Shown: in pieces, positions 2,746-64,000 of the stretch
Layout: each line of letters starts with the position of its first letter
Numbering within the stretch: position 1 is the first letter of the stretch
IMG/VR virus record: IMGVR_UViG_3300025924_000017
Location: 161,612-225,611 of that record
Length of the DNA stretch: 64,000 bases
Strand: one strand, 5' to 3'
From: a virus
Taxonomy: Duplodnaviria > Caudoviricetes
Position numbers and translations under genes: made by a program
The notes under the pieces: model-generated
Databases searched by the model: none
Seen by the model: the letters and a program-made list of their open reading frames with translations, nothing else
Told to the model about the DNA's origin: nothing

Positions 2746-3960
2746 TGACACTGACGCCTGCCTTTGGCTTTGATCGTTGCAACGTGAAAAGCTGGTGAAT
2801 TGGCGGACAATGGATTTGGTAGGGACTGACGATAGCGGCGAACCGCGCATAGTGGCGTTGTAACAATAGGGACCGATCCTGATCACACTCCGGTTCAAGT
2901 CCGGTACCGGTGAGCCGAAGTCAGGCGCCAGTGTCATGAGAACCTTCATAGGCGCATCACTCCACCGTAAGGCACGCCAAGGCCGGTCGGTGCAGAAGAC
3001 GAGGGCTAGGGGCCTTGGCGGGCTCCGAAACAACGGGCCGGGCTTGTAACCCGGCAGTGGGACTAAGCCCCTCCCGGGCGGCGTGGGCCGTCTAACGTTG
3101 TAGTCGTGGTGTGTCTATGAAGGTTCTGAAACAGATAGGCCGATACAAGGGCTGTAAGACCTCACGAGGCATGCAGGCGTAGCGGCTACCATTGTGCCAC
3201 GGGATAAAACGCACCGTCGTCATGACACGGGAGCGCCGGGGTGAGCCGAGCGGGGAGCAGCTTGGGAACAGAATGCTCCAAGAATTTTGGCGGTTCGACT
3301 AAGGAAGTCGGCTCGATGATAGGTAGCACCCTTCGAGACAATCCGGTGTCAACTCCGGCCCGTCAGCCCAGTCAGTGTCGCCATTGCAGACGGCGTGACA
3401 CATTCCAAAACTAAATTGTCTGCAAGGCGTGTTTCTCGAAGCGCGAGTGCGGGGAGAGATGTAGCGATGAGCACCGGAAGAAGGCCAACTCCAATCCGGC
3501 GCGACTGCGCAAACATGCGGTTGACTCTGAGCCGATAGTTGGTCTGTTGGCTCACAGACGCAGTCGAGAAGTCAACCGGCAGACCGGCCGTTGCGTTAGG
3601 TCACGAATTCCCGAAAGGGATAGCTGCGACGTCGAAAGACGCTAATGAGCAGGAAGGCCGTAACTCCTGTGCAGCGCAAACGGTCGCGAAATTCATAGCA
3701 GGGTCAACCCGACGAAGCTGAACGCGTCAGTGGAGGGTCGAAGCTAGGGCACGAGGACGACTCAAATCGTGTCTCTCTAGGGGTCAGGTAGATAATAGAC
3801 CGTGCGGTGCGGTCTCCGATCCCAGCCGTTTGAATTCTCGGGGCGCATCAGAACGTCGAGCCCCATGCGAGACTTAAAGACGTGACGTTGGGAGAGGCCC
3901 ATCCAGATTTGAGTTTGAGGACTCGGCGCGACCTTCACGGGTGCAAATCCCGATGGGTCC
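2746..3960 (+). ncRNA. giant ornate structured ncRNA candidate (~1.2 kb; GOLLD-like or new class)
   Basis: No credible ORF. Nested long helices with G.U pairs: 2746-2760/2922-2936, a 22-bp helix 2939-2960/3106-3127, 3243-3249/3308-3314, 3518-3526/3570-3578, 3896-3903/3952-3959. GNRA hairpins TCCC-GAAA-GGGA and CGTC-GAAA-GACG; T-loop-like hairpins at 2890-2904, 3343-3358 and 3938-3952. Confidence 0.75.
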
Positions 3961-59244: not shown

Positions 59245-59844
59245 GTGTCAAACGCCTGCAACGCAAGCGGGTCTGGGAGTGGGTCTGATTTGATCATCAT
59301 TCCGGGCATCGTAGGCTTCGGCCGCGTCGGTCATTACGAGCGTAAAGGCCTGTACGCCCCGGACGAAGTCTTTCCACACATCAGTGAAAGCTCCAGCGCG
59401 TTCGTAGATTTCGACGGCGATCCCATGCGCATGTCTTCGCCGCGCTACGTGCTCTTCAACAAAAGCATGATCTGCGTACGCTGCGAGATGGAAGGTATCT
59501 ACTTCGCCAAAGAGCGGGCGATCTATCTCGACCGAAGCAGCGGCAAATACTGGCCGACAAGCCTGCACTACCACTTCAATCTCTATGGCAGAAACAAGCA
59601 CGGTCACGAGACCATGTTGACGAAAGATCACATCCTGCCTCGCGCGCATGGCGGCAAGGACGATCAGTCGAATTACCAGACGATGTGTGCGCCCTGTAAC
59701 GGACGCAAGCGTGACCGGCTGCCGGGAGAAACCGACGAGCAGTACCGTGACCGGCGCGCGGTTGTGAAAGACGTCGAGCGCAGACGCAATCTCCTCCACA
59801 CGCGGGGGCACTACATTCCGATGGAGCGCAAGGTCGCAGAATGA
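59245..59844 (+). CDS. HNH endonuclease
   Basis: LTKDHILPRAHGGKDDQSNYQTMCAPCNGRK; start position uncertain. Confidence 0.85.
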   Translation: MSNACNASGSGSGSDLIIIPGIVGFGRVGHYERKGLYAPDEVFPHISESSSAFVDFDGDPMRMSSPRYVLFNKSMICVRCEMEGIYFAKERAIYLDRSSGKYWPTSLHYHFNLYGRNKHGHETMLTKDHILPRAHGGKDDQSNYQTMCAPCNGRKRDRLPGETDEQYRDRRAVVKDVERRRNLLHTRGHYIPMERKVAE

Positions 59845-60014
59845 ACCCGATTGACCTAGATGATCTCAAGAGACGTCTCAGGAGCGCGCAGATCGCATCC
59901 TGTTCGTGTGGAACGAAGACGCCGGACATCGCATATCACGCCGCGACTTGTCGCTATCGGCTGTTCCGTGAGGCCGAACTTGTTGTCGCCAGATTGATCG
60001 CGCTTAAGGAATAA

Positions 60015-60290
60015 GTGGTCAGGCCGCGTTTCAGGGCCAGTGGACTCGTTTGCCGCCCGTCAGGATGCCATGGGTGAGTGTTGTTCCCAACAAAGGGGAC
60101 CGTCACCCACAGACTGACACCTCGATAAAATTCCCGATCCCGATTCCCTTTTCGCTATCCTTCACGGGGAAGGGACCCTACTTGCGGCGCTGAGGCCTTC
60201 GGGTGCATCTCGCTACTTCGTTCATCCGCCGGGCTTCGCGTCGGCTTTCCCTCCGTTTCGCCTCTCGGGTCATACGACCTGACCGCCTCC
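60015..60290 (-). ncRNA. candidate ~275-nt structured ncRNA with its own promoter
   Basis: Minus-strand TTGACT (60319-60314), 17-nt spacer, TAGGAA (60296-60291). Ends pair over 11 bp (GGTCAGGTCGT / GCGGCCTGACC); inner helices TGGGTGA/TCACCCA, GTCAG/CTGAC, TCCCTT/AAGGGA, GAGGC/GCCTC; purine-rich loops; no ORF. Confidence 0.6.
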
Positions 60291-60390
60291 TTCCTAACGC
60301 GGCGCTGGGCTAAAGTCAAGTTCCTGTCAGTAGTTTGTTGACAAAATAGTTCGCAGACTGCGACAGTGAAGCGTTGACAAAACGACCCGG

Positions 60391-60792
60391 GTGCGCTACG
60401 AGCGCGCCATGATCGACCGTATCCGCAGCATCAATCCGGACTTGGGTTTTCCAACCCCGGAACATTCTCTCGATGAGATCGTCCGACGCCATTACGCTGC
60501 ACATTTTGCCGACGACGAGGCGCGACGGTTGACCGACGATTACTTCAACGCCCTCGAAAGGCGTCTCACCGGCGGCGATAAACCAAAGCTCAGCATGCGC
60601 CAGCAGCAGGTCTTCGATGTGCTGACAAACGCGTTCCAACGGCCGTGGGCGATTGCGCAGGCCGCCGGGATCACCACAACGTCGCCCGGCGAGACTGCCG
60701 CAAAGTTCTGCATTCAACTCGTAAAGCTCGGGCTCGCCGAGAAGGGCGGATCACCCATGTTCCCAGAGTGGCGCCGGGTGTCGGGCGCGTGA
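60391..60792 (+). CDS. hypothetical protein, possible winged-HTH C-terminus
   Basis: ORF after tandem TTGACA promoters at 60338 and 60374; start may be ATG 60409. Confidence 0.55.
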   Translation: MRYERAMIDRIRSINPDLGFPTPEHSLDEIVRRHYAAHFADDEARRLTDDYFNALERRLTGGDKPKLSMRQQQVFDVLTNAFQRPWAIAQAAGITTTSPGETAAKFCIQLVKLGLAEKGGSPMFPEWRRVSGA

Positions 60793-63554: not shown

Positions 63555-63908
63555 ATGCGAGTCTTCCAGCGCAGCGCTTTCGAATGGGCACTCGACATCT
63601 TCGGCCCCGTCGTGCGCGGCGCCCGCTATCAGGCCTTCCGCCTGCTTGAGGAAGCTCTGGAACTGGGGCAGGCGTTAGGTCTCACCCGGGAAGACGCGCT
63701 CCGCACTGTCGATTGGGTCTTCGGACGGCCGCCGGGCTCCGTCTTGGTCGAGATCGGCGATGTGCGCCTCTCGCTCGATATCCTAGCCGAAACGCAAGGG
63801 ATCGACTGTGCGCACGCCTATGGTGCCTGCTGTCTCCGGGTGTCCGAACTTGATCCCGTGAAGATGCGTGCGAAGGACCAAGAGAAGATCGCCGCTGGTT
63901 TGATCTGA
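63555..63908 (+). CDS. MazG-like all-alpha NTP pyrophosphohydrolase fold protein
   Basis: RLLEEALELGQA...WVFGRPPG...EIGDV. Confidence 0.65.
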   Translation: MRVFQRSAFEWALDIFGPVVRGARYQAFRLLEEALELGQALGLTREDALRTVDWVFGRPPGSVLVEIGDVRLSLDILAETQGIDCAHAYGACCLRVSELDPVKMRAKDQEKIAAGLI

Positions 63909-64000
63909 ACCGAAGGAACCTGATGATCAAAGACACTATCCAAATCGTTGCCGCCGTCTATCTCCTCTTCTGGGGGTTAAAGATGGAGACCGCGAATCTG

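Follow-up and report, generated by a model that had tools for sequence, protein, structure and literature searches.

The window analysed here, a stretch of 64,000 nucleotides, is the final 64 kb of an IMG/VR phage record of 225,611 bp, and its minus strand almost certainly carries a genuine gene for a structured RNA that belongs to a new family (Table 1). The newness is at the level of the RNA family, which is absent from Rfam. What might such an RNA do? Our preferred reading, to which we assign a probability of roughly 0.45, is that the gene specifies a self-contained, stable, folded RNA that would bind a host factor or ligand through an invariant junction core. In the clade of this phage the RNA appears to be a stand-alone unit, and in distant phages it seems to form the head of an mRNA for a small ORF. 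The earlier note on this DNA had proposed that the minus strand encodes an undescribed structured ncRNA of the phage, transcribed from a promoter of its own; conservation of the promoter, covariation, the lack of a conserved ORF and the lack of an Rfam counterpart all support that proposal.

Table 1. Features of the RNA locus; positions are those of the window.
Feature	Position	Strand	Basis or remark
Structured RNA, outer P1 pair G60284-C60017	60017-60284	-	Alignments A3 and A5, pair counts, no conserved ORF
Conserved core, P2-P7	60036-60260	-	Match of covariance model R1
P1a 5' strand GUCAG (60283-60279) and P1b 5' strand GUCG (60278-60275)	60275-60283	-	Closing helix
35-nt block CGAAACGGAGGGAAAGCCGACGCGAAGCCCGGCGG	60226-60260	-	P2, internal loop, P3, P3b and start of P4
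AGUAGCGAG, P4b 5' strand	60209-60217	-	Invariant in 11/11 sequences; also part of the search pattern
GAUAGCGAA (GGUAGCGAA in other members), P4b 3' strand	60151-60159	-	Conservation partly ascertainment
Window-specific 46-nt expansion of P7	60074-60119	-	Contains TGGGTGA/TCACCCA; absent from L101, L102, L104 and L105
-35 hexamer TTGACT	60314-60319	-	Conserved as TTGAC[T/A] at the same place in L101, L104 and L105
-10 hexamer TAGGAA	60291-60296	-	17 nt past the -35 hexamer
HNH endonuclease gene	59290-59844	+	184 aa; Pfam HNH_5 and HNH as only domain
57-aa Cys-rich ORF between HNH gene and RNA	59841-60014	+	Convergent with the RNA
Divergent promoter of the 127-aa gene	60374-60411	+	Neighbour, not part of the RNA; TTGACA 60374-79, N17, TACGAG 60397-402, 6 nt, ATG 60409

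The RNA lies in a gene-free gap of 394 nt (60015-60408), the largest in the window's right arm, which extends from the stop codon of a 57-aa ORF (60014) to the ATG of a 127-aa ORF (60409). Unlike the flanking genes, the gap has equal GC content in all three codon phases, and the gene caller of the ENA contig that contains the same DNA (389,787 bp) makes no call between 59845 and 60408; the ORF-free gap to which the earlier note pointed is thus real. The purine-richness that it described is found on the minus strand over 60100-60324. It also correctly placed the RNA downstream of and convergent with an HNH gene, though the 57-aa ORF intervenes. This ORF overlaps the HNH stop codon (ATGA), was not called by the ENA gene caller, and is 50% identical to residues 172-227, the middle part, of a 311-aa protein of Brevundimonas phage Bajun. 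Its homologues in relatives are ORFs of 68-70 aa placed elsewhere, not at the RNA. A pseudogene remnant was considered for the gap and rejected, as the translated gap showed no similarity to the Bajun protein past residue 227 or to the relatives' genes. The ENA contig continues past the window end into record position 137, and about 125 nt at the record end (window 63876-64000) recur near the record start (genome ~12-136). The contig reads straight across the record junction, so the assembly behind the 'linear' record is circularly closed or concatemeric; the record end is an assembly cut, and the RNA locus does not lie near a true terminus.

A minus-strand promoter pointing into the gap, TTGACT-N17-TAGGAA, had been claimed from the sequence; it is present and is kept in relatives. 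All four aligned sequences have TTGAC[T/A]-N17-TAnnnn, the relatives' -10 hexamers being TACACA, TATATG or TAGGTG at identical spacing, while the sequence of the spacer is unconserved. In these four the predicted start point falls 5-7 nt after the -10 hexamer, on the first base of a helix; the predicted start site of the window copy, 7 nt past the -10 hexamer, is the first base of helix P1. A generic promoter scan did not flag the TTGACT-N17-TAGGAA site. The phage's own promoter class was derived starting from a start-codon motif present in 24 copies in the genome. Its core, TTGACA-N17-TA, occurs at 44 genome sites where 2.9 are expected, with -10 elements of the form TAnnnn, such as TATAAC, TAGGGG, TAGGAG and TACGAG. 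TTGACT-N17-TA is found at five genome sites, at least one of them a clear cassette promoter. The predicted minus-strand promoter of the RNA fits this class. At the other end of the putative transcript, a GC-rich hairpin followed by a U-run, an intrinsic terminator, lies after P1 on the minus strand in L101, L104 and L105; the terminator scan recognised none at the window copy, and the 3' end of the putative RNA is placed here at the outer pair of the closing helix.

The TTGACA-N17-TACGAG site in the same gap drives the 127-aa gene on the other strand, so the gap contains two promoters facing away from each other, one of which points into non-coding DNA. The transcript of the 127-aa gene is apparently leaderless. 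A promoter class of the form TTGACAAA-N13-GCTAnnn, with an ATG after 6-9 nt, recurs at some 20 further genome sites (window 52731 on the minus strand and 62421 on the plus strand among them), and because promoters of this class sit directly before the ATG, many genes of the phage look leaderless. Window positions 60337-60382 contain two exact GTTGACAAAA boxes at a distance of 36 nt, and these flank a perfect palindrome, TCGCAGACTGCGA (60351-60363), whose pattern, TCGCAG-N-CTGCGA, has just one further occurrence in the genome, at position 82581. The array of boxes and palindrome may be an operator for the divergent promoters.

Ten homologues of the RNA were found in phage metagenomes, nine of them distinct, and they divide into four close and six distant relatives. 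All of the structure rests on 10 distinct sequences, the window included, from about eight lineages. The close homologues (L101, L102, L104 and L105) were reached through homologues of the HNH protein, followed by alignment of the gap. They share the gene order dCMP deaminase, two small ORFs, HNH, a 61-aa ORF, a gap of ~400 nt and a 118-aa gene. At positions 2907-3560 of L105 the dCMP deaminase and the next small ORF are called as one product of 217 aa, which matches the window in three pieces and is presumably a fusion, a frameshift or an assembly error. Scanning metagenomes for exact sequence blocks gave one match, identical to L104. In IMG/VR, exact-block scans returned nothing for two block patterns and chance matches only for a third, and bacterial and archaeal genomes likewise gave chance matches only.

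A covariance model, R1, was built from the core without P1 (173 positions, 37 pairs). Run on the 225-kb genome, it matches the core of the window copy end to end (167.3 bits, E 3e-41) and finds no other. The distant members were obtained by scanning IMG/VR for the two P4b strands separated by a variable gap, with R1 as the filter; six were confirmed, at 45-95 bits and E values of 1e-9 to 1e-22. R1 found no match in phage Bajun, in two bacterial genomes or in a sample of 151 further genomes from the class of one of them. Locus searches of IMG/VR with the 127-aa and HNH proteins returned no related loci, none of 80 loci obtained via the dCMP deaminase contains the RNA, and the homologues of the 127-aa protein (P0002-P0008) stand in contexts without it. 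Among cultured phages, nucleotide and protein searches with the gap and its neighbours recovered only the dCMP deaminase and one segment of the Bajun protein; searches with the distant RNAs recovered nothing. In the literature we found no comparable ncRNA for the phiCbK family and no match to the conserved strings, and an earlier listing is possible in the supplements of a 2023 survey of viral structured RNAs (PMC10690425).

The helices were derived from five sequences, the window and its close relatives. Of the 41 pairs in this alignment, 12 have both partners substituted and none has a single partner substituted; 99% of cells pair. The six distant sequences played no part in deriving the fold. 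When they are added, in an 11-sequence alignment that was itself fitted to the model, 27 of the 37 core pairs have compensatory changes, one pair varies on one side only, and 96.2% of cells pair. Pairing at this level was reached by 0 of 500 shuffles, and slid controls gave 3-7. Each of P2, P3, P4, P5, P6 and P7 is formed by several unrelated sequences across members. P1 is present in every lineage as 5-20 bp of unrelated sequence, with energies of -2.6 to -33 kcal/mol. The G-U pairs at invariant positions are compatible with the minus strand only. The comparison with homologues that the earlier note had called for thus yielded ten relatives whose helices bear compensatory changes.

The fold begins with P1a and P1b, continues through P2, an internal loop (5' GGGAAA / 3' AAACGAA) and P3/P3b, and opens into a three-way junction bearing P7 and P4; from P4 it passes through a loop-E-like P4b to the hairpins P5/P5a and P6. 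P1a is closed by CUGAC (60018-60022) and P1b by UGGC (60036-60039). The corresponding strands in relatives are GUUGG/CCAAC and AUCG/UGGU, both sides having changed together. The terminal loops drift and the length of P7 varies freely among distant members; the blocks at the junction and internal loop are near-invariant. Close relatives have the 35-nt block of the window unchanged, apart from L104, where AG is swapped to GA, and its GGGAAAG, CGCG and GGCGG are retained in most of the distant members. At P4b, AGUAGC stands opposite GCGAA, in columns that never vary and that served as the search pattern. The 5' strand here fits what we take to be the consensus of the loop-E or bulged-G (sarcin-ricin) motif, AGUA/GAA, flanked by G-C and C-G pairs.

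How does this compare with the structure first drawn from the single sequence? The 11-bp stem proposed to join the ends, GGUCAGGUCGU/GCGGCCUGACC, is present with two G-U pairs and is conserved only in modified form, as the two-part P1a/P1b. One of the proposed inner helices, TGGGTGA/TCACCCA, survives as the window-specific extension of P7. No homologue has an equivalent of the other six (GTCAG/CTGAC, TCCCTT/AAGGGA, GAGGC/GCCTC, CCCGA/TCGGG, GGATG/CATCC and AGGGTC/GGCCCT), which compete with helices that do covary. The pseudoknots had been deduced from helices that homologues do not conserve, and find no support. By a rough estimate, helices of 5-7 bp together with one 11-bp stem that tolerates G-U pairs are expected by chance in 276 GC-rich bases, and the minimum-free-energy fold of the 276 nt is not better than those of shuffled sequences (z +0.35 for the minus strand, -1.15 for the plus strand).

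The RNA core of the window is 67-77% identical to those of its relatives; for the neighbouring HNH gene, identity at third codon positions is 46-48%. The ORFs on either side of the RNA differ: those of the window (57 and 127 aa) have no homology to those of the relatives (61 and 118 aa). It is the predicted RNA with its promoter that is the conserved module; its surroundings are not. No ORF in the RNA region is conserved across homologues. The window does contain a 31-codon Arg-rich ORF on the minus strand (60178-60273, MTREAKRRESRREARR...), with GGAGG upstream, that resembles an arginine-rich RNA-binding peptide. A small protein was rejected as a candidate, since this ORF has no start codon in relatives and the TTG-initiated ORF of the relatives is broken in the window. 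HNH homologues 66-74% identical to the window's protein flank the RNA in the close relatives, and other relatives that encode HNH have neither the gap nor the RNA. The association with HNH, which the earlier note had suggested checking, therefore stands as synteny within one clade; it does not extend to these relatives or to most of the distant members, in which no HNH gene lies nearby.

Five of the six distant members reside in complete, terminally repeated genomes of 36, 38, 47, 119 and 165 kb, and each of these, like the genome of this phage, contains exactly one copy of the RNA. Protein sharing was compared for four carrier genomes of 36-225 kb, namely the three small ones and this phage. 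Pairs of these have 0-3 weak BLASTP matches, and no ORF is common to three of them. The RNA is by far the most conserved common feature of the four compared genomes, and no phage-encoded protein travels along with it. The lack of a shared phage protein among these carriers suggests that the partner is most likely a host component or a small ligand, or that the RNA acts alone, for example by catalysis; the RNA is on that account a candidate for a new RNA-based route by which phages sense or manipulate their hosts.

The earlier note described the RNA as antisense to its surroundings. This is correct for the window; in five of the eight lineages (L175, L158, L164/L178, L168 and L189), all distant, the RNA instead heads a co-directional small ORF, P1 ending 12-33 nt before a Shine-Dalgarno sequence (SD) and ATG, and no terminator was found between the RNA and the downstream ORF. 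The ORFs behind the distant RNAs encode 57-115 aa, are unrelated by reading, and belong to no clear Pfam family, with one sub-threshold match to TPR_2. Upstream neighbours differ as well: a large terminase subunit, a family A DNA polymerase and a weakly HNH-like ORF. The SD is left single-stranded in three of four minimum-energy folds with P1 formed. In the window, L101/L102, L104 and L105, the RNA is not in the 5' UTR of a co-directional gene.

Is the RNA a member of a known family? Among the 4227 covariance models of Rfam 15, none matches at gathering score, and none matches 59800-60500 even at E≤10; the statement that no RNA family could be recognised was accurate. L104 and L105 gave only sub-threshold chance matches to Rfam, the best two of them on the terminator hairpin. 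Resemblances by eye to hammerhead, RNase P, 5S, c-di-GMP-I, cobalamin and glmS RNAs were dropped, as no model matched. Few large RNAs combine numerous covarying helices with a near-invariant junction core, and the solved examples are ribozymes, riboswitches or the cores of ribonucleoproteins. Orphan ncRNAs of complex fold, such as the raiA motif, HEARO, GOLLD and ROOL, are often phage-borne, and their function is not known. They likewise span a few hundred nt with covarying helices and conserved unpaired nucleotides. The RNA described here differs in matching none of their Rfam models and in being single-copy and promoter-proximal with no adjoining tRNA genes, and it is smaller than GOLLD and ROOL.

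Two families invite comparison through the HNH gene. HEARO, the omega RNA of IscB, is a similar structured RNA of 200-300 nt found near an HNH gene; it lies upstream of, and is co-oriented with, an IscB gene encoding RuvC and HNH domains. In contrast, the window RNA does not match RF02033, lies downstream of and convergent with its neighbour, whose 184-aa product has HNH only, and is missing from relatives that keep HNH. A group I intron with an HNH homing endonuclease was rejected: there is no Intron_gpI match, the RNA is on the strand opposite to HNH, it has its own promoter and, in relatives, a terminator, and the flanking genes are intact and non-homologous. A retron msr-msd or DRT-type ncRNA was likewise rejected, with no RVT_1 match anywhere in the 225-kb genome.

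Other phage RNAs resemble this one in general character. T4 RNA C and RNA D lie in a tRNA cluster, and pRNA belongs to the packaging motors of phi29-like phages. They too are structured, stable RNAs of phages, their 5' and 3' ends pair, and they count neither as tRNA nor as mRNA; no sequence relation to them is to be expected. The antiterminators put of HK022 and EAR of Bacillus share with the five leader-type lineages a position at the head of an operon. Unlike them, the RNA is much larger, occurs once per genome and has no Rfam match, and in close relatives it is followed by a terminator with nothing beyond to be read. As for stand-alone sRNAs, a promoter and the lack of an ORF agree with that class, a terminator is found in L101, L104 and L105 and not in the window, and the leader-type lineages do not fit.

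The position of the RNA in five of eight lineages, a classic cis-regulatory leader position with no terminator, speaks against our preferred reading, as does the lack of a recognisable terminator at the window copy. Could the RNA be a cis-acting 5' leader, either a riboswitch-like sensor or a portable mRNA stabiliser or translation enhancer for the ORF that follows? Besides this position, just upstream of an SD and ATG, the anatomy is that of riboswitch aptamers: a closing P1, a multi-way junction with an invariant core, and variable peripheral helices and hairpins, the whole being promoter-proximal. The terminator directly after P1 in relatives recalls transcriptional riboswitches. The stand-alone copies would then be a derived state and might gate antisense read-through into the convergent operon. 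We regard a leader as the main rival to our preferred reading, although clearly the less probable of the two. The downstream genes are mutually unrelated ORFans without the coherence expected behind a riboswitch. P1, at 8-20 bp, is very stable, as a switchable P1 would not be. The search for an expression platform revealed neither an anti-terminator nor an alternative pairing that sequesters the SD, and partial complementarity in L101 and L105 that might have formed an antiterminator was rejected, being not kept in L104. The window copy has no terminator, and in this clade no co-directional gene follows the RNA, yet the fold is kept by compensatory changes. Since the stand-alone copies have retained the fold in this way, its function would need no downstream cistron. 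The long, stable P1, the free SDs and the unrelated ORFs together argue against a classical switch and are compatible with a processing stem.

If the invariant junction nucleotides were instead a catalytic core, the RNA could be a ribozyme, for instance one whose self-cleavage frees the RNA or the downstream mRNA. The large and complex fold, the near-invariant unpaired nucleotides and the spread among unrelated phages without a shared protein would suit this, as would the stem that flanks the RNA where it is co-transcribed with an ORF. No ribozyme model of Rfam matches even at E≤10, however, nothing indicates a cleavage site, and the CUGACGA and GAAAC strings, by our reading, probably do not fit the hammerhead core; we hold a ribozyme to be improbable. 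An antisense regulator, in which transcription or the RNA itself is directed against the convergent 57-aa ORF and HNH operon, would fit the convergence and the lack of an intervening terminator in the window. A terminator is present in close relatives, the distant RNAs point the same way as their neighbouring genes and mostly have no HNH gene nearby, and such a role does not need a conserved complex fold, which makes this reading quite improbable. A DNA-level element (a MITE-like transposon, a replication origin or a protein-binding site) or a small protein gene is so improbable as to be nearly negligible. P1 does resemble terminal inverted repeats around a unit of 200-270 bp moved between genomes. 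These 'inverted repeats' are, however, wholly different between lineages, where transposase sites would be expected to stay the same; each of six genomes has a single copy, and a MITE was rejected on these grounds. The internal helices covary and contain strand-specific G-U pairs, GC skew is featureless at the locus and uninformative in the search for an origin, and the Arg-rich window ORF with its SD-like sequence, which would favour a protein, is offset by the lack of any conserved ORF or codon periodicity.

How would a self-contained RNA of the preferred kind, with a host factor or ligand as its partner, work? Transcription would start at the TTGACT-N17-TAGGAA promoter, which is of host type, from the first base of the closing helix P1. 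In this clade the ends of the RNA would be the transcription start and, in relatives, the intrinsic terminator. In other phages the long P1 (8-20 bp) might be a processing stem at which the RNA is freed from the mRNA that it heads. The invariant junction core would then bind something that the phage does not encode, whether a host protein, a host machine or a small molecule, and the mode of action would be neither base-pairing nor a gene-specific switch.

More tentatively, and with less probability, the RNA may represent a new class of horizontally mobile, self-sufficient phage RNA that acts on a conserved host target without a phage protein. It could possibly be a decoy or aptamer 'sponge' against a host defence or signalling molecule, or a new class of ribozyme. 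Such a mobile class, if real, would explain why the RNA is nearly the sole common feature of otherwise unrelated phages of 36-225 kb.

Several smaller observations were made near copies of the RNA and elsewhere in the window. In L168, at ~3330-3350, a near-palindrome, GTGGACATAGGTCCAC, occupies the spacer of the predicted promoter of the RNA copy and is possibly a repressor site. In the 165-kb phage (L175), six copies of GTTAA(C/A/G/T) are clustered within ~80 nt, about 130 nt upstream of the RNA, and may be a repeated operator or iteron. At the opposite end of the window, positions 2192-2589 contain a gene for an alpha-type (two-piece) tmRNA and three tRNA genes, the sole Rfam matches at gathering score in the window.
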